A DNA stretch of 64,000 nt from Escherichia coli. Lineage in GTDB: Bacteria > Pseudomonadota > Gammaproteobacteria > Enterobacterales > Enterobacteriaceae. The notes beneath the pieces are model-generated. The model had not been told where the DNA came from. It did not search any database and worked only from the letters and a program-made list of their open reading frames with translations. The stretch's first letter is position 1, and every line of letters starts with the position of its first letter. Where the stretch lies: the NCBI RefSeq assembly GCF_044647545.1, contig NZ_CP172818.1. The stretch is one strand, 5' to 3'. Of the stretch, positions 14,591 through 64,000 are shown one piece after another. A program made the position numbers and the translations under genes.

Positions 14591-15112
14591 TTAACGCAGT
14601 CGCCCTCTCGCCAGGTTCAGCCGCGATTCGCTCATCTGCATCGCATTCTGACTGACGTGACAATGAGTAATCGCGATAGCTAACGCATCGGCGGCATCCG
14701 CCTGTGGATTAGCGGGCAGTTTCAGCAAGGTGCGGACCATATGCTGCACCTGGCTTTTTTCGGCACTACCAATACCTACCACCGTTTGCTTTACCTGACG
14801 TGCCGCGTATTCAAATACCGGCAATTCCTGATTCACCGCCGCCACAATCGCCACGCCGCGCGCCTGCCCCAGTTTCAGGGCCGAGTCGGCATTTTTGGCC
14901 ATAAAGACTTGTTCGATTGCGAAATAATCAGGCTGGAACTGGGTGATGATTTCCGTCACGCCCGCATAGATGAGCTTCAGACGAGACGGTAAATCATCCA
15001 CTTTGGTGCGTATGCATCCGCTACCCAGGTAGGACAGTTGCCTGCCTACCTGGCGGATGACGCCATAGCCGGTCACGCGCGAACCCGGGTCAATGCCGAG
15101 AATAATAGCCAT
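14591..15112 (-). CDS. ruvC: Holliday junction resolvase, 173 aa
   Basis: [19 protein letters not shown]... RNase H-like resolvase; start at the second Met of the track ORF. Confidence 0.95.
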
Positions 15113-15146
15113 CACGCGTCTCCGTTTTGCTGTTTAGCAGGCCTCA

Positions 15147-15887
15147 TCAGAGAGTCGCTGCAACCTCATCAGAGATTTCACCGTTATGGTAAACTTCCTG
15201 CACGTCGTCGCAATCTTCCAGCATATCGATCAGACGCATCAGTTTCGGTGCGGTTTCTGCATCCATATCAGCTTTGGTGGACGGGATCATGGAAACTTCC
15301 GCGCTGTCTGCTTTCAGACCTGCCGCTTCCAGAGCGTCGCGTACTTTGCCCATTTCTTCCCATGCAGTGTAGACATCAATCGCGCCGTCATCATAGGTCA
15401 CAACGTCTTCAGCACCGGCTTCCAGGGCTGCTTCCATGATGGTGTCTTCATCGCCTTTCTCGAAGGAGATCACGCCTTTTTTGCTGAACAGATAAGCTAC
15501 GGAACCATCAGTACCGAGGTTACCGCCACATTTGCTGAATGCATGACGCACTTCAGCAACGGTACGGTTGCGGTTGTCAGACAGACATTCAATCATGATT
15601 GCCGTGCCGCCAGGACCGTAACCTTCGTAGATGATGGTTTCCATGTTTGCATCATCATCACCACCCACACCTCGTGCAATTGCGCGGTTCAGAGTGTCAC
15701 GGGTCATGTTGTTAGACAGTGCTTTATCAATTGCTGCACGCAAACGCGGGTTAGCGTCCGGATCACCACCGCCCAGCTTAGCCGCGGTTACCAGCTCACG
15801 AATGATTTTAGTGAAGATTTTACCGCGCTTAGCATCCTGCGCAGCTTTACGATGTCTGGTGTTGGCCCATTTACTATGACCTGCCAT
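15147..15887 (-). CDS. yebC: YebC/PmpR-family transcriptional regulator, 246 aa
   Basis: [27 protein letters not shown]... conserved YebC family. Confidence 0.93.
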
Positions 15888-15915: not shown

Positions 15916-16329
15916 TCAGGCAGCGTTAATTACAAACTGTTCAATCGCCTGCCGGTTGCTCCAGGACTTAGTGAGCGCCGCCGCAGCATGCGCATCAAGC
16001 CACTTGTAGGCCAGATGTTCAGTGAAGACGACCTGGCGTTCGTGCGGAAGCGCAAGACAGAACCATGATTCCGTATTACGCGTCACGCCCGGCGCATAGC
16101 GATGACGTAAATGTGAAAAAATTTCAAATTCTACCGTGCGCTGACAGTCAATTAAGGTCAGTTGTTCAGCGACAACATCAATGGTGACCTCTTCCTTTAC
16201 TTCGCGCATGGCAGCTTGCGGCGCGGTTTCACCCTCTTCCACGCTGCCGGTTACCGACTGCCAGAAATCGGGATCGTCACGCCGCTGCAACATCAGCACC
16301 CGTTTCGTATCTTGTGCGTAGATGACCAC
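15916..16329 (-). CDS. nudB: Nudix hydrolase (dihydroneopterin triphosphate diphosphatase); start codon uncertain
   Basis: Nudix box [21 protein letters not shown]; the track starts at GTG 16327-16329; the aspS TGA is in-frame 30 nt upstream with no ATG between. Confidence 0.8.
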
Positions 16330-16359
16330 TAAGATCGAAACGGGACGCTTATAGCCATA

Positions 16360-18132
16360 TCAGTTATTCTCAGCCTTCTTCACAACCTGAATGCTCAGCT
16401 CAGCCAGTGCAGTCGGGTTAGCAAAGCTCGGTGCTTCAGTCATCAGACACGCCGCCGCCGTGGTTTTCGGGAAGGCGATAACGTCACGGATATTGTCGGT
16501 GCCGGTCAGCAGCATGGTCAAACGGTCAAGACCAAATGCCAGACCTGCGTGCGGCGGAGTACCGTATTTCAGGGCGTCGAGCAGGAAGCCGAATTTCTCG
16601 CGCTGTTCCTCTTCGTTGATACCCAGAATACCAAACACTGTCTGCTGCATATCACCATTATGGATACGCACAGAACCACCGCCCACTTCGTAACCATTGA
16701 TGACCATATCGTAAGCGTTCGCCACCGCATTTTCCGGTGCAGCTTTCAGTTCTGCTGCCGTCATGTCTTTTGGTGAGGTGAACGGATGGTGCATTGCCGT
16801 CAGGCCGCCTTCACCGTCGTCTTCAAACATCGGGAAGTCGATAACCCACAGCGGTGACCATTTGCTTTCGTCGGTCAGACCAAGGTCTTTACCCACTTTC
16901 AGGCGCAGTGCACCCATCGCGTCGGCAACAATTTTCTTGTTGTCGGCACCGAAGAAAATCGTATCGCCATCTTGCGCGGCAGTACGATCCAGGATGGCTT
17001 CGATGATTTCTGCATTAAGGAACTTCGCTACCGGGCTGTTGATACCTTCCAGACCTTTCGCGCGTTCGTTAACTTTGATGTACGCCAGACCTTTCGCGCC
17101 GTAGATTTTAACGAAGTTACCGTATTCGTCGATCTGTTTACGGGTCAGCGATGCGCCGCCCGGAACGCGCAGAGCCGCTACGCGACCTTTCGGATCGTTC
17201 GCCGGACCTGCAAATACTGCAAATTCAACGGATTTCAGCAGATCGGCAACGTCGGTCAGTTCCATCGGGTTACGCAGATCCGGTTTATCAGAACCATAAC
17301 GGCGTTCTGCTTCTGCAAAGGTCATTACCGGGAAATCGCCCAGATCCACGCCCTTCACTTCCAGCCACAGATGACGCACCAGCGCTTCCATCACTTCACG
17401 CACTTGCGGGGCGGTCATGAAAGAAGTTTCCACATCGATCTGAGTAAATTCAGGCTGACGGTCAGCACGCAGGTCTTCGTCACGGAAGCATTTAACGATC
17501 TGATAGTAGCGGTCAAAGCCGGACATCATCAGCAGCTGTTTGAACAACTGCGGGGATTGCGGCAGTGCGTAGAATTTACCTTTGTGCACACGAGAAGGCA
17601 CCAGGTAGTCACGCGCGCCTTCCGGCGTGGCTTTGGTCAGCATCGGAGTTTCGATGTCGAGAAAGCCGTGGTCATCCATAAAACGGCGCACCAGGCTGGT
17701 GATTTTAGCGCGGGTTTTCAGGCGCTGAGCCATTTCCGGGCGACGCAGGTCGAGGTAGCGGTATTTCAGACGCGCTTCTTCGGTGTTGACGTGGTTAGAG
17801 TCAAGCGGCAGAACATCTGCGCGGTTGATGATAGTCAGCGAGGACGCCAGCACTTCGATTTCGCCGGTCGCCATATCGCGGTTAATATTTTTTTCGTCAC
17901 GCGCACGTACGGTGCCCGTGACCTGAATGCAGAACTCATTACGCAGTTCAGAGGCCAGCTTTAACGCGTCCGCACGATCCGGATCGAAAAATACCTGCAC
18001 GATACCTTCGCGGTCGCGCATATCGATGAAGATCAGGCTACCAAGATCACGACGACGGTTGACCCAACCACACAGAGTCACCTGCTGCCCCACGTGGGAC
18101 AAACGGAGCTGTCCACAATATTCTGTACGCAT
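16360..18132 (-). CDS. aspS: Aspartate--tRNA ligase, 590 aa
   Basis: [24 protein letters not shown]... class II aaRS; C-terminus ...VVKKAENN. Confidence 0.97.
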
Positions 18133-22023: not shown

Positions 22024-22055
22024 AGTAGCGCCCGTTTCCGGGCGCTTTTCACGTC

Positions 22056-29273: not shown

Positions 29274-29326
29274 TCGGTTATACCAACAGCCGATGTCATG
29301 GAGACCGCTTTTTATTTTTTTATCAT

Positions 29327-29719
29327 TCAACGATAATTCACAATCACTTCATTCCGTTGTACCTTTAGCGGCGGAATTAACCGCCCACCGCCAGGCACTT
29401 CCCAGATAAATCGCAACGGTTCTATCGCCGGTATACCGGAAAAGGCCACGGTGGTTCCACTCTGCCCTTCTAATTCGACACAACGAGATTGCGAACACAA
29501 GCGAACCCGCAGTCCTGCAGGTGTCGGGCCGATAAGCTGATAACGCCACGCCACCAGCGTCATCAATCCTGCAGCAGGTTGTCGAGTAGAAAGAGGCGCT
29601 GACGACATCGATTCACCACGGTGATTCAGCGTAACGCCCACACTACTCGCCTGCCACATCCCCTCCCCCGCGGCTTGCACCAGCAGCGGAAACAATAATA
29701 TTGCTAATAAGGTTCTCAT
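29327..29719 (-). CDS. flhE: Flagellar protein FlhE, 130 aa
   Basis: MRTLLAILLFPLLVQAAGEG... signal peptide; last gene of flhBAE; its ATG overlaps the flhA stop. Confidence 0.9.
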   Translation of the reverse strand: MRTLLAILLFPLLVQAAGEGMWQASSVGVTLNHRGESMSSAPLSTRQPAAGLMTLVAWRYQLIGPTPAGLRVRLCSQSRCVELEGQSGTTVAFSGIPAIEPLRFIWEVPGGGRLIPPLKVQRNEVIVNYR

Positions 29720-32938: not shown

Positions 32939-33105
32939 GTCGCCAATCCTGGAAAGAGTATTAAGCGTAAATGATGCCAGATCGCAAAGCGTTCAATGGT
33001 TTGAGTAAGGGGCAAAACAGGCGGGATTTAGGGCGTTTGCTGCCAAAAATAGATAGTGATGCGTTTAGTCGGATGCGGCGTTTTCGCTTATCACGCCTCA
33101 AAAAA

Positions 33106-33188
<83 letters not shown>

Positions 33189-45286: not shown

Positions 45287-45961
45287 CAAAACACTCAATT
45301 ACTTAAATTTAACACAAATCATCAACAAAAATACAACTTCCATTCAATCTCTTTATTAATACACCTTCCACCATCCACATATAAAACACATTCGAATTCT
45401 TACACCACCCTCAACTAAAGGACACAAAAACAAACCAACACCTCAAAAACACCACATACACTAAACAAGCAGCATCACCCATAAATGTATAAGTCATACT
45501 TTTGTTTTGGGTGTATTTCAATCTGTTAAAAAGTTTTTCGCAACGCTAGCAAGCAAAAATGAAACAGGAATAATCGAAATGGGATGTTGCGCACAGTTAA
45601 AATAACTCACCGTAAATAATCATCTGCTATAAATAATCACTTTCATGCAATACCCGATAAGCTATTTTTAAACAGACACTTACCGCACAACAAACTAATT
45701 AAATACAAAGAAAGGCAACAATCAACCTAATGTTAATAAAATGTTTTGCATATATTAACCACTTGTTTAATATGGGAAATCAGTACATTATTTTCTTATA
45801 AATACAGTTGAAATCATATGATCACCGAGAGTGATTGATTAATTATCTTTACTAATGACCAGACTAATATTTACCTGTTTTACTGAGTTGGGATTGCGTC
45901 GTTTCTCCATTAGGAGTAAAGCTTTAATGTCACCTGCAGTTCACAGAATAAGGAACAGGTT

Positions 45962-58010: not shown

Positions 58011-58097
58011 TGGTACCCGGAGCGGGACTTGAACCCGCACAGCGCGAACGCCGAGGGATTTTAAATCCCTTGTGTCTACCGATTCCACCATCCGGGC
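58011..58097 (-). tRNA. leuZ: tRNA-Leu (anticodon UAA)
   Basis: Reverse complement reads GCCCGGATGGTGGAATCGGTAGACACAAGGGATTTAAAATCCC...GGGTTCAAGTCCCGCTCCGGGTACCA, 87 nt with long variable arm. Confidence 0.97.
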
Positions 58098-58109
58098 TCG
58101 GGAAGAAAG

Positions 58110-58183
58110 TGGAGGCGCGTTCCGGAGTCGAACCGGACTAGACGGATTTGCAATCCGCTACATAACCGCTTTGTTAACGCGCC
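58110..58183 (-). tRNA. cysT: tRNA-Cys (anticodon GCA)
   Basis: Reverse complement reads GGCGCGTTAACAAAGCGGTTATGTAGCGGATTGCAAATCCGTCTAGTCCGGTTCGACTCCGGAACGCGCCTCCA. Confidence 0.97.
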
Positions 58184-58237
58184 AAATTCTTCAGGCCTTT
58201 CAGCCAGACATCCGCTTGACGCCGATGTCTTTTAAAC

Positions 58238-58313
<76 letters not shown>

Positions 58314-58464
58314 ATTCATCAAGCAATCAGTTAATCACTTGATTTTATTATCGTCTGGCAATCAGTGCCGCCGTTCGATGCGTTGCATTCTACTTACCTG
58401 GCGCGATGAGTCAACGATATTTTTCACCACTTTTGATCGTTTGCTGAAAATTGCGCCGAAACGA

Positions 58465-59013
58465 TCACTGATCAAGCAAATCTGCACGCGCAGCGCTCAA
58501 ATATTGCAACATTGACCACAGCGTCAGTACCGCAGCCACAAAGAAAAGTGCAATACCGGCGTACTCAACCCAAATGTTCGGACGCCACAGCAGCCAGGCC
58601 AACGCCACCATCTGGGCAGTTGTTTTCACTTTCCCAATCCAGGAGACAGCCACGCTACTGCGTTTACCCAACTCCGCCATCCATTCGCGTAGCGCAGAAA
58701 TAATAATTTCACGGGCGATCATCGTTGCCGCCGGTAATGTCACCCACCAGCTGTGATAATGCTCGGTTACCAGCACCATGGCGATAGCCACGAGAACTTT
58801 ATCTGCGACAGGGTCAAGGAAAGCACCAAACCGGGTACTCTGGTTCCAGCGGCGTGCCAGAAAACCATCGAACCAGTCAGTCACCGCCGCGACGCAGAAA
58901 ATGAGCGCGGCGGCAAACGGCGACCAGGTGACAGGCAGATAAAAGACCAATACAAAGAATGGGATAAGGATGACACGGAACAGTGTAAGCAACGTAGGGA
59001 TATTAAATTGCAT
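58465..59013 (-). CDS. pgsA: CDP-diacylglycerol--glycerol-3-phosphate 3-phosphatidyltransferase, 182 aa
   Basis: [27 protein letters not shown]... CDP-alcohol phosphatidyltransferase motif. Confidence 0.95.
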
Positions 59014-59069
59014 AATGACGGGTAACTATCTGTTGTCAGTAAGATTACCCCTATGTTGCTACAGAGACA

Positions 59070-60902
59070 TCAATGTTTCAACGACCAGAAGATCTTTTCT
59101 GCCAGACCTTGCGAAATACCCGGCACTTTTGCAATTTCCTCAACGCTGGCGTTACGTAAACCTTGCAAACCGCCCATATATTTCAACAACATTTGCCGAC
59201 GTTTTGGCCCGACGCCTTCAATGGTTTCCAGGGAACTGGTATTTTTGACCTTCGCCCGTTTCTTACGGTGCCCACCAATCGCGTGATCGTGAGATTCATC
59301 GCGAATATGCTGGATAACATGCAGCGCGGGAGAATCTGGCGGCAAACTGAATCCCTCACCTTCCGGCTCAAAGAACAGCGTTTCCAGCCCAGCTTTACGG
59401 TCTGCTCCTTTGGCAACGCCAAGTAGCAGCGGATGATTTTTATCCCATGAGACATCCAGTTCGGCGAAGACATTTTTCGCCTGCGCAAGCTGGCCTTTGC
59501 CGCCGTCGATAAGGATCACATCCGGGATCTTACTGTCGTCAATGGCTTTACCATAACGCCGACGCAGCACCTGATTCATCGCCGCATAATCATCGCCCGG
59601 CGTGATGCCAGTAATGTTATAGCGCCGATACTCCGCACGCAGCGGGCCGTTAGCATCAAACACCACACAGGAGGCGACGGTTTGTTCACCCATGGTATGG
59701 CTGATGTCAAAGCACTCCATCCGCTTCACTTCCGGCAATTTCAACACGCTGGCAAGCGCGGTCAGTCGCTGGTGAACGGTAGATTGCTGCGAAAGTTTGC
59801 TGGTTAAGGCCGTCGCCGCATTGGTGCGCGCGAGTTTCAGATAACGCGCCCTATCGCCGCGAGGTTTGGTTTGAACATTAATCTTGCGTCCCGCCAGTTC
59901 TGAAAGGGAATCGGCGAGCAGCGTTTTATCGCTAAGATTAAAATCGAGCAGGATCTCACCCGGTAAGGTGCGCATCTGGCTGCCTTGTAAATAGAACTGA
60001 CCTACGAAGGTTTCCACCACCTCGCTCAGTTCCGTACCGCCAGGCACTTTCGGGAAATAGCTACGGCTGCCGAGCACTTTGCCCTGACGAATGAACAATA
60101 CGTGGACACAAGCCATGCCCGCATCAAACGCCACACCAATAACGTCAAGGTCGTCGCCGGTATTGGACACAAACTGTTTTTCGGTGACGCGTCGCACCGC
60201 CTGAATTTGGTCGCGAATACGTGCCGCTTCTTCAAACTCCAGATTCTGGCTGGCAGTTTCCATACGGCTAATGAGTTGCGTAAGCACCTGATCATCTTTG
60301 CCAGACAAAAACAGGCGCACATACTCGACCTGCTGAGCGTATTCTTCTTCACTCACCAGTCCTTCAACGCACGGTCCCAGACAGCGCCCTATCTGATATT
60401 GCAGACACGGACGCGAGCGATTGCGATAAACACTATTTTCGCACTGGCGAATGGGGAATATCTTTTGCAGTAACGCCAGTGTTTCACGTACGGCATAGCC
60501 ATTCGGGAACGGGCCGAAATATTCACCTTTGGCATGCTTCGCACCACGATGCATCGCCAGACGCGGGTGGGTATCGCCACTCAGGAAGATAAAAGGATAA
60601 GATTTATCATCGCGTAGCAAAACGTTGTAACGCGGCTGATAGAGTTTGATGTAGTTGTGTTCCAGCAACAGCGCTTCGGTTTCTGTATGAGTAACCGTTA
60701 CATCAATTTGCTGGATCTGGGCGACCAGCGCTTCGGTTTTGCGCGAAGCGAGGTTGCTACGGAAATAGCTGGAAAGCCGTTTTTTCAGGTCTTTCGCTTT
60801 GCCGACATAGATAACCGTACCACCAGCATCGTACATGCGATAAACGCCTGGCTGGCTGGTTACGGTTTTTAAAAACGCTTTTGCGTCAAACTGATCACTC
60901 AC
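59070..60902 (-). CDS. uvrC: Excinuclease ABC subunit C, 610 aa
   Basis: [47 protein letters not shown]... GIY-YIG N-terminal domain. Confidence 0.97.
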
Positions 60903-61555
60903 TGACTTGATAATGTCTCCGCATTACACAGACCATGGCGAATTGCCAGGTGAGTCAGCTCAACATCGCCATGAATGTTTAGTTTACTGAACATACGATA
61001 GCGGTAGCTGTTCACCGTTTTCGGACTGAGATTGAGCTGTTCTGAGATCTCATTGACCTTCTGGCCCTTGGTGATCATCAGCATAATCTGCAATTCACGT
61101 TCAGACAAACTGGCAAATGGGCTTTCTGTTTTTTCTGGTTCGATCTGGCTTAACGCCATTTGTTGAGCGATGTCATAAGCAATGTAACGCTGCCCTGAAT
61201 AGACAGAACGGATCGCACTCACGACTTCCTGCGGAGCCGCGCCTTTGCTGAGGTAGCCCGCAGCACCGGCCTGCATGACTTTCGCTGGTAAAGGGTTTTC
61301 TGTATGGACAGTAAGCATGATGATTTTGACATCAGCTGTGGAACGCGCGATTTTACGCGTCGCCTCAAGACCGCCAATGCCCGGCATACTCATGTCCATT
61401 AGCACCACGTCAACGGCATTTGCCCGGCACCACTTAACGGCGTCTTCACCGCACGATGCCTCACCGACGACTTTTATACCCTTTATATCTTCCAGAATGC
61501 GTCGTATCCCTGCGCGCACCAGTTCGTGGTCATCAACAAGTAGAACGTTGATCAA
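60899..61555 (-). CDS. uvrY: Response regulator UvrY (BarA/UvrY two-component system), 218 aa
   Basis: [33 protein letters not shown]... receiver plus LuxR-type HTH; stop overlaps the uvrC start. Confidence 0.96.
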
Positions 61556-62013
61556 AGGAATATCTCCAGAAATAGGGATAACGCTACTGATAGTTAGTCA
61601 TTCGTATATTAGCGGTTTTTATTGCAACTTTGAAACGTTAAAAATGGTGGGTATTCGATTTTTCTCTCGTTTTTGTAAATTCGATTGTCCACAGTTATGG
61701 TCACGCCCGTCACCAACGGCTTCCGGGATCGTTTCACAGTAAGCCCTGCGATGAAATGTGACAAAAATTGACTTTATTCAGCAAAAATGAAAATCAGCCC
61801 GCTGAATATGTAACATTAATTAACCCGAACAATACGGGCAAAAAACATTCATGATAAAAATATTTATTGGTCATTATATTAACGTATTTTATAGTACTGT
61901 TGATATCACGCTCAAAAAACAACCACTGCTATTTTTAGCAAAGCTTATGGTATACTCCGCCGCCTTAACATTTTTCACCGCAAATTTTCATTGCAACATG
62001 ACGAGGAAAATAA

Positions 62014-62238
62014 ATGAGTACGCCTGATTTTTCTACTGCCGAGAATAATCAAGAACTGGCAAATGAAGTCTCCTGCCTGAAAGCGATGCTGACGCTGATG
62101 CTGCAGGCGATGGGACAAGCTGACGCGGGCCGCGTGATGTTAAAGATGGAAAAACAGCTTGCGCTGATCGAAGACGAAACCCAGGCTGCAGTATTTTCCA
62201 AAACGGTTAAGCAAATTAAACAAGCCTACCGTCAGTAA
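62014..62238 (+). CDS. yecF: Small protein YecF (DUF2594), 74 aa
   Basis: [51 protein letters not shown]... Confidence 0.85.
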
Positions 62239-62242
62239 TATA

Positions 62243-62278
62243 AAACCGGCTGAGAGCGTGTCTTTCAGCCGGTTTTTG
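62243..62278 (+). terminator. Terminator between convergent yecF and sdiA
   Basis: Hairpin aaaccggctga...tcagccggttt followed by tttt. Confidence 0.6.
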
Positions 62279-62304
62279 CATCTGGCACGCAGAAAGAAAA
62301 GCGA

Positions 62305-63027
62305 TCAAATTAAGCCAGTAGCGGCCGCGTAACAGGCCACCTGGGTCTTATTCGGTGCATTGATTTTTTTCTGCATGTTTTTCTGATGGAAATTGACCGT
62401 ATTCTCAGAGATTGACAAAATCATCGCTATCTCTGCTGATGTCTTCCCTTCCGCCGTCCATTTCAGAATTTCTTTTTCGCGCTTGCTGAAATTCATCTCT
62501 GGCGTCATCACTATTTCATCATTTAAACGCATTAGAGCCATCAGACTTTCGCGCACCAGTAACTGCATTTTTAATTGCAGTTCATCACTAAGAATGGGTA
62601 TTTCGCGCGTGCTGCAACGGGAAAAGGACAAAAAGCCCAGCGCCCGATTTGGCAGCATTAAATACTGAGTGACACCGCGGCGTAAACCATGTGCGCGCGC
62701 AGCTTCCCATAACGGCTGTGCTTCGCTGAATAAGTCATCATTCCACATTAAATGGCCCTGACTAAAGTTTTCAGGGTTCAGCACAGGATCAATTGCGAGA
62801 AAATTTTTTGCCTGATAATAACTAACCCACGACTCAGGGTAATTGGTGTAGAAAGCCACTTTAGGTCGCGTGAATGGTACCGGGTGGCGAACACATAACG
62901 AATAGTAATCGTACTCCAGCTGCTGAGCCTGAAGCTCTATTTCATGGTAGACCTCTTCTGCGGCCTCCATCCTCTGAAAACGCAACAGCATCGTGCGAAG
63001 CCAGCTGAAAAAATCCGTATCCTGCAT
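62305..63027 (-). CDS. sdiA: LuxR-family acyl-homoserine-lactone-responsive regulator SdiA, 240 aa
   Basis: MQDTDFFSWLRTMLLRFQRMEAAEEVYHEIELQAQQLEYDYYSLCVRHP... autoinducer-binding plus LuxR HTH domains; start at the internal ATG. Confidence 0.95.
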   Translation of the reverse strand: MQDTDFFSWLRTMLLRFQRMEAAEEVYHEIELQAQQLEYDYYSLCVRHPVPFTRPKVAFYTNYPESWVSYYQAKNFLAIDPVLNPENFSQGHLMWNDDLFSEAQPLWEAARAHGLRRGVTQYLMLPNRALGFLSFSRCSTREIPILSDELQLKMQLLVRESLMALMRLNDEIVMTPEMNFSKREKEILKWTAEGKTSAEIAMILSISENTVNFHQKNMQKKINAPNKTQVACYAAATGLI

Positions 63028-63256
63028 AGTAAACCGCAACGCCCCTGAGAGTGAGTATCATTTATAATGATAATTCAAACTATCACATAAATAAGATTTA
63101 TATATAATTTATATTATTCAGGCAATGAATTACTTTTGCAAGCCATCGCATTCTCTTATGTTATTAATGAGTTATGCTGATTTGTTAAGCAGTTTTATCA
63201 CGTTTGAAGTGGCGCACCGCCCCGACTGGTGAATCGTCGGGGCTGATTTTTTCTTA

Positions 63257-64000
63257 TTATTGCAGCAGAAACTTCTCCAGGAACTGGCGGGTGCGAGGCT
63301 GCTGAGGATCGGCAAATAACGCTTTTGCAGCCCCCTGCTCGACTATCCGCCCCTGGTCCATAAAGATCGCCCGGTCCGCAACATCCCGGGCAAAGCTCAT
63401 TTCGTGCGTCACAATCACCATTGTGCGCTTTTCCTGCGCCAGCTGGCGGATGGTGTTCAGGACTTCGCCCACCAGCTCTGGATCCAACGCCGACGTTGGC
63501 TCGTCAAACAAAATCACCTCAGGACGCATTGCCAGCGCACGCGCAATCGCAACTCGCTGCTGTTGACCGCCAGACAAACGACGTGGATAGCTGGTTTCTT
63601 TACCGGCCAGCCCAACTTTCGCTAACAGCTCGCGAGCGCGCGCCGTGGCCTCTTCTTTTGGTTCGCCTTTGACGATCACCGGACCTTCAATAATGTTTTC
63701 CAGCACCGTACGATGCGGAAACAAATTAAAGTTCTGGAAGACAAACCCGACGTGTTGACGCAACTGGCGAATCAGCGATTTTTGCTGACTTAATGAACGT
63801 GCAGTATCAATAGTGATATCGCCAACGGTGATGGTTCCCGCTTCCGGTTGTTCCAGCAGATTTATGCTGCGTAGCAACGTGGTTTTGCCGGAACCACTCG
63901 GACCGATAATTGCCACTACTTCGCCAGGCTTCACCTCAAGGTCGATACCGTGCAGCACCGTCTGACCGTGGAATTTTTTCACCAGGTTCTTAACTTCAAT
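63257..64000 (-). CDS. tcyN: Cystine ABC transporter ATP-binding protein, 5' end beyond the window
   Basis: Walker A GPSGSGKTT, signature LSGGQQQRV; minus-strand reading frame continues past position 64000. Confidence 0.9.
   Translation of the reverse strand: MEVKNLVKKFHGQTVLHGIDLEVKPGEVVAIIGPSGSGKTTLLRSINLLEQPEAGTITVGDITIDTARSLSQQKSLIRQLRQHVGFVFQNFNLFPHRTVLENIIEGPVIVKGEPKEEATARARELLAKVGLAGKETSYPRRLSGGQQQRVAIARALAMRPEVILFDEPTSALDPELVGEVLNTIRQLAQEKRTMVIVTHEMSFARDVADRAIFMDQGRIVEQGAAKALFADPQQPRTRQFLEKFLLQ

Follow-up and report, generated by a model that had tools for sequence, protein, structure and literature searches.

The junction between aspS and nudB, a gene of the folate pathway, is found in two forms in Escherichia coli: an ERIC element is present there in about 3,750 complete genomes and is absent from about 1,509. 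The K-12 gene has the element. Its NudB protein (150 aa, PDB 2O1C and related) begins at a GTG and reads M-K-D-K-V-Y-K-R-P-V. In the alignment K-12 has 125 extra nt between ATG(A/G)CT and TATAAG (L002:748-872); 117 nt lie between the aspS stop and the GTG, and these together with the first five codons belong to the 125-nt insert. We identified the insert as ERIC by the sites of the ERIC1R and ERIC2 primers: in its centre the ERIC-PCR primer sites are matched in 18/22 positions for ERIC2 and in 17/22 for the complement of ERIC1R, and the two lie next to each other as they should. This repeat is dispersed, and in the median genome it can be detected in 4 places. ERIC has been described as a MITE of about 127 bp flanked by TA (PMC3184786). 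A literature search on ERIC together with aspS gave nothing relevant.

The element occupies the same position in E. albertii, two Salmonella subspecies, three Citrobacter species and Pseudenterobacter. The ERIC-bearing loci other than K-12 are L011, L023, L035, L046, L062, L067 and L084; the site corresponds to 16353-16358 in the window, by which we mean the whole stretch of 64,000 nucleotides of E. coli DNA which was analysed. In ERIC-bearing loci the old TGA-T-ATG is still found upstream, and the 3' end of the element gives AGAGG followed by GTG AAG GAT AAA GTG; the pairing of this ERIC-borne Shine-Dalgarno sequence is -5.8 kcal/mol. The old ATG opens a 20-codon ORF inside ERIC. On the alignment, the N-terminus of the crystallised K-12 NudB (the GTG and K-D-K-V) is encoded by the repeat. 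That this one site is occupied in several genera implies that the polymorphism is old and the element was precisely lost, or that insertions recur at a hot spot.

The second form has no insert. In FDAARGOS_497, UM146 and ECONIH1 it reads AAT AAC TGA T ATG GCT TAT AAG CGT CCC, with M-A-Y-K-R-P-V as its translation. The RefSeq annotation of nudB in insert-free strains has 150 aa and starts at an ATA 8 nt inside aspS (ITDMAYKRPV); its sites are L001:734-741, L003:734-741 and L004:16514-16521, which correspond to approximately 16360-16367 in the window. The conserved ATG three codons downstream of this ATA, which gives 147 aa, appears far more likely to be the start. We compared the nudB loci of 80 species-representative genomes of Enterobacteriaceae. 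An ATG is found two codons before the motif [YF]-K-x-P-[VI]-S-[VI]-L in 72/80 of them; it lies 1 nt after the aspS stop in 66/72, 5 nt after it in 2, and overlaps it (TAATG) in 4. The segment [YF]K.PVS[IV]L, upstream of the GTG position which we discuss below, is conserved as protein in 80/80 species. Since its position directly after the aspS stop is conserved to this extent, the ATG at 16358-16356 is, as judged from the species comparison, the ancestral start of nudB.

This arrangement belongs to the termination-reinitiation type of coupling (UGAUG / UAAUG), with UGA-U-AUG in the native junction and UAAUG in the four species mentioned. In the native TGA-T-ATG the stop is near enough to the start for coupling to be predicted. 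The Shine-Dalgarno sequence of the native ATG is weak and poorly spaced, with an anti-SD pairing of -3.3 kcal/mol; an ATG directly after the aspS stop with a weak Shine-Dalgarno fits translational coupling to aspS, as we infer it. At a normal junction, ribosomes which finish aspS could thus start nudB, and the protein would begin with M-A-Y-K-R-P-V-S-I-L and have 147 aa.

The junction in the window

In the window the second form is found: like 1,509 other genomes, it has no ERIC/IRU insert at the junction. The protein is the same as that of K-12 from Y-K-R-P-V on, but K-12 has ERIC exactly between codon 2 and the YKRPV codon. The flanks and the TGA-T-ATG arrangement are those of ECONIH1, FDAARGOS_497, UM146 and most Enterobacteriaceae, and the neighbourhood aspS-nudB-yebC-ruvC is kept (ORF list; annotations of ECONIH1, K-12 and UM146). 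However one T after codon 2 is absent and the ATG is out of frame, which is the case for no other member of this group; apart from this T the junction is identical to that of the three insert-free genomes. The coordinates of the features are given in Table 1.

Table 1. Features of the aspS-nudB region in the window
Feature	Position	Strand	Basis
aspS (aspartate--tRNA ligase), intact, 590 aa	16360..18132	minus	ORF list; 0 differences from ECONIH1 aspS WP_022645809.1 here
Conserved native start codon of nudB (ATG), separated by 1 nt from the aspS stop and not in the frame of the nudB body	16356..16358	minus	sequence; alignment with FDAARGOS_497, UM146 and K-12
Deletion site; the window has GCTATAAGC, its relatives GCTTATAAGC, a perfect 10-nt palindrome	16347..16355	minus	alignment; BLAST difference list against ECONIH1
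9-codon frameshift ORF MAISVPFRS* from the native ATG	16329..16358	minus	translation
Residual nudB frame from GTG 16329-16327, 137 aa, lacking residues 1-10 of the 147-aa protein	15916..16329	minus	ORF list
yebC, downstream in the same cluster, intact	15147..15887	minus	ORF list; ECONIH1 annotation
ruvC, next after yebC, same cluster	14591-15115		ORF list

The aspS gene ends with AAC TGA, its stop being at 16362-16360 of the minus strand, and in the same frame it is followed by TAT GGC TAT AAG CGT CCC GTT TCG ATC TTA GTG. The sequence-only reading had described this continuation from the aspS TGA into TAT GGC TAT AAG CGT CCC, and the sequence confirms it. The first start in the aspS frame is also the one it had given, the GTG at 16327-16329, which leads to 137 aa and has no ATG before it. 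Its claim that nudB has no canonical ATG holds for the aspS frame only: the ATG at 16358-16356, whose frame is +1 to that of the nudB body, had been overlooked. Read in that frame, the bases after the aspS TGA are T ATG GCT ATA AGC GTC CCG TTT CGA TCT TAG TGG TCA.

The closest E. coli genomes have ATG GCT TAT AAG where the window has ATG GCT ATA AG (TGATATGGCTTATAAG and TGATATGGCTATAAG in the alignment). A single T is absent between 16353 and 16352, at the boundary of nudB codons 2 and 3. It falls in a palindrome which was read directly from the sequence, its 5-nt arms being shorter than the seed length of the repeat search. Because one T of GCTTATAAGC is missing, the frame from the native ATG shifts at codon 3 and stops after 9 codons; no uninterrupted nudB frame runs from the conserved start. 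The TAG of the short ORF (16331-16329) shares one base with the GTG, in the TAGTG at 16331-16327. The rest of nudB falls into the aspS frame, where it has no ATG; that it shares the frame of the aspS stop is no more than a side effect of losing 1 nt. Among the loci compared, the window is the only sequence with the frame broken between codon 2 and the Y/F codon.

As it is written, nudB is, on this alignment, a frameshifted gene and not a gene with an unusual start. The single missing T pushes a canonical and conserved ATG out of frame, which by comparison with the relatives is an ordinary single-base frameshift. Frameshifted pseudogenes and indel errors in bacterial records likewise consist of a single-base indel near the 5' end of a gene which is otherwise conserved, and are seen in one record only; nothing sets the window apart from them. 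It is neither a new start mechanism nor a rearrangement. Of the small deletion or rearrangement which had been proposed earlier only the first part stands: the alignment and the difference list give a single T missing with respect to all close relatives. That proposal took as its reference a NudB of about 150 aa with extra residues and a short spacer before YKRPV. The size and the residues are right for K-12 (MKDKV). K-12 also has a spacer, but it is made by the ERIC insertion and is not short. The relevant reference is not K-12 but the insert-free form, TGA-T-ATG-GCT-TAT-AAG. The mismatch with the reference NudB is, from the sequences compared, the result of two causes, a common presence/absence polymorphism of ERIC and a private deletion of 1 nt.

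The identity of the gene as NudB is beyond doubt as far as sequence comparison goes. The NCBIfam profile NF006961 (NudB, dihydroneopterin triphosphate diphosphatase; Nudix superfamily equivalog) has a cut-off of 103 bits. The repaired protein of 147 aa reaches 247 bits over profile positions 3-149, and the 137-aa ORF 226 bits, over positions 13-149 only. The repaired form is nearly identical to the E. coli enzyme which has been characterised experimentally and crystallised: PDB entries 2o1c, 2o5w, 5u7e, 5u7f and 5u7h match at E = 1.3e-94, and its residues 2-147 differ from residues 5-150 of that enzyme by two substitutions. The Nudix box GX5EX7REUXEEXGU is found as G38-SVEEG-E44-TAPQAAM-R52-E53-V-K-E56-E57-V-T-I; its final G is T in the window, and the K-12 enzyme is identical over that stretch.

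The GTG at 16329 has no Shine-Dalgarno sequence (anti-SD pairing +0.3 kcal/mol), and ribosomes could use it only if they reinitiated once the overlapping UAG had stopped them. The leader ORF of the window, which ends in UAGUG overlapping the GUG, shares this geometry with the coupled junctions described above, but here the overlap arose accidentally through the deletion and shows no conservation, and its GUG lacks Shine-Dalgarno support. According to the alignment a product which started at the GTG would miss the invariant residues K4, P6, S8 and L10; it would also lose the first four residues of the predicted strand beta-1 (residues 7-15, mean pLDDT of the model 87). Because these residues and the start of the strand are lost, the activity of a NudB lacking residues 1-10 appears doubtful.

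Distribution of the allele and other private features

A 901-nt query covering the junction has matches in 5,425 of the 5,426 complete E. coli genomes. By length they form two classes, one with a single piece of 902 nt and one with two pieces which make up 1,027 nt, and the alignment accounts for both. We also searched the complete E. coli genomes with a 61-nt probe centred on the deletion site. Each of the 1,509 one-piece matches has an identity of 98.4% to it, and the difference is always the single gap. A one-piece match with 100% identity is found in none of the complete genomes, and the allele is present in 0/1,509 of the insert-free ones. In an exact-pattern scan of metagenome contigs there were 0 copies of it, while the intact allele, used as a positive control, was found in 39 contigs. 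The sequence-only reading would have been refuted by reference genomes which share this junction and have a GTG or other start annotated at this position; the junction occurs in no genome.

The same 137-aa product is found once in public assemblies, in the Logan contig SRR11867861_54. Its deletion is a different one, CCC to CC, 9 nt away, which yields the same 137-aa call; we rejected it as a second instance of the allele of the window. In this contig yebC and ruvC are split and there are many other frameshifts. It is an independent, artefactual example of a frameshift in nudB.

No complete RefSeq E. coli genome matches the entire window. Its left 33 kb have no substitutions with respect to ECONIH1 outside one short spacer stretch. 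Over 24 kb the window is about 100% identical to ECONIH1-like genomes, including ten others, without substitutions and yet with private deletions. Its right part is 99.8% identical to SCU-301. In 33052-33151 it lacks about 2.4 kb which ECONIH1 has between flhB and cheZ, with a dgt-like dGTPase gene and a hypothetical gene. In 58066-64000 it has the tRNA-pgsA-uvrC-uvrY-sdiA arrangement of SCU-301 and not the restriction-system island of ECONIH1; beyond about 58 kb the differences from its best relative are ordinary substitutions, that is SNP divergence. In the aligned 58 kb the missing T of nudB is the only indel with respect to ECONIH1 which is found in a coding region.

Other private features are found in spacers. 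At 22025-22026 there is a private deletion of 2 nt (AT), 3 nt after the cmoB stop and immediately 5' of the terminator hairpin AGCGCCCG-TTTC-CGGGCGCT. It is exactly the site where many strains carry a REP/BIME insert of 132 nt, and a one-piece 100% match to it is found in 0/5,426 complete genomes. In the argS-flhE spacer (29277-29328) other E. coli have a strong convergent terminator whose hairpin is lost in the window: within 55 nt its 3' arm is garbled by 5 substitutions and about 8 indel positions. The folding energy is -21.5 kcal/mol for ECONIH1 (z = -4.6) but -9.2 kcal/mol for the window (z = -0.7); the best full-length identity of the spacer in the 5,426 complete genomes is 90.3%. This garbling looks like a local problem of sequence quality. 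The flhD-uspC spacer contains a stretch of 173 nt (45307-45479) which is very poor in G, with the composition A78 C55 T35 G5. It is not present in ECONIH1 or SCU-301, and it is found in 0/5,426 complete E. coli genomes. We rejected its origin as a G-to-A or C-to-T converted local copy, since it scores as shuffled sequences do. The stretch lies upstream of flhDC, so if it is real it could affect the regulation of motility. Finally, in the otsB-araH spacer (48732) a homopolymer A8 is changed to A7, a difference which is common to one complete genome, GF131.

We also considered both private deletions as footprints of an imprecise excision of ERIC or BIME elements. This is unlikely: the flanks are identical to those of insert-free relatives, which have intact sites.

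Explanations of the missing T

We lean, with slightly better than even confidence, towards an error of the record and not a property of the strain as the most likely cause of the missing T. We favour this explanation because further anomalies private to the window are found at structured sites, a garbled terminator hairpin among them. Dense private changes which are confined to palindromes, hairpins and homopolymers, amid DNA which is otherwise identical to its relatives, typically come from problems of sequencing or assembly more than from evolution. The deletion beside the cmoB hairpin, the argS-flhE spacer, the A8-to-A7 change and the G-poor stretch all point in this direction. The error-ridden Logan contig, with a similar artefactual frameshift in the same gene, is a further argument. 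On the other hand palindromes and homopolymers are also natural hot spots of indels, and a change of TT to T is not a classic error of long homopolymers. Only one private indel is coding in a window which is mostly coding; purifying selection on real mutations gives the same pattern. Moreover a real loss would be tolerable, since nudB is dispensable: the delta-nudB strain is viable, with a hypersusceptibility of more than 300-fold to sulfamethoxazole (SMX) and of 60-fold to trimethoprim (TMP) (PMC5843663).

A real deletion comes second, and we hold it to be plausible with somewhat less than even confidence. It would be a frameshift private to the strain, which leaves nudB as a pseudogene or a weak hypomorph. 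Translation would start at the AUG coupled to aspS, go through 9 codons and end at UAG; a small fraction of ribosomes could re-initiate at the GUG of 16329 through the UAGUG. Here the sequence is taken as it is given, with the overlap of stop and start directly visible in TAGTG. The viability of the mutant (PMC5843663) agrees with it, as does the fact that the private indels are mostly intergenic, which is what is expected after selection. The site is also a plausible mutational hot spot, being a perfect palindrome of 10 nt and at the same time the TA-rich insertion site of ERIC. What weighs against a real deletion is that no other genome or metagenome contig has the allele, and that the garbled terminator and the other private anomalies suggest an unreliable record. 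Re-initiation in particular would have to proceed without a Shine-Dalgarno sequence and would give the truncated product, whose activity we consider doubtful on the structural model.

If the deletion is real, a working NudB without residues 1-10 might still be made by a two-step relay of termination and reinitiation, from UGA to AUG, through the leader of 9 codons, and from UAGUG to GUG. We consider this improbable. In that case NudB could do without the conserved segment of its N-terminal strand, and an accidental overlap of stop and start which has no Shine-Dalgarno would be able to rescue a frameshift at codon 3. Anything beyond an error of the record or a real private frameshift appears very improbable to us.

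Two further explanations can be dismissed briefly. It is hardly credible that ribosomes read through the aspS UGA and make a fusion of AspRS and NudB, or that a -1 frameshift from the frame of the native ATG is programmed and restores the full-length NudB: such recoding has only the geometry in its favour, with no stop between the aspS stop and the nudB body in their shared frame, but the frames differ in all relatives and the shared frame is conserved nowhere, being a by-product of the private deletion. Direct inspection of 16358-16329 gave no slippery heptamer X XXY YYZ, no stimulatory element or selenocysteine signal is evident at the junction, and we rejected both forms of recoding on the lack of a heptamer and on the absence of the arrangement from all relatives. 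It is just as hard to believe that NudB is naturally shorter in this lineage and has the GTG at 16329 as its normal, annotated start; the 137-aa ORF does score above the family cut-off (226 bits against 103), but neither the junction nor such a start annotation is found in any reference genome, the protein sequence encoded upstream of the GTG is conserved in 80/80 species and there is no Shine-Dalgarno, so that the comparative data refute it.

For annotation, these comparisons indicate that nudB of insert-free strains starts at the ATG which a single base separates from the aspS stop, and that the GTG start and the N-terminus MKDKV of K-12 come from an ERIC element. If the missing T is an error of the record, its only effect would be a mistaken annotation of nudB, either as a pseudogene or with a truncated protein of 137 aa. 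If it is real, one strain of the ECONIH1-like lineage would have its NudB lost or weakened. Such a strain would have a lower supply of folate precursors, and strong hypersusceptibility to SMX and TMP is predicted for it (PMC5843663), unless acquired resistance genes mask the effect.
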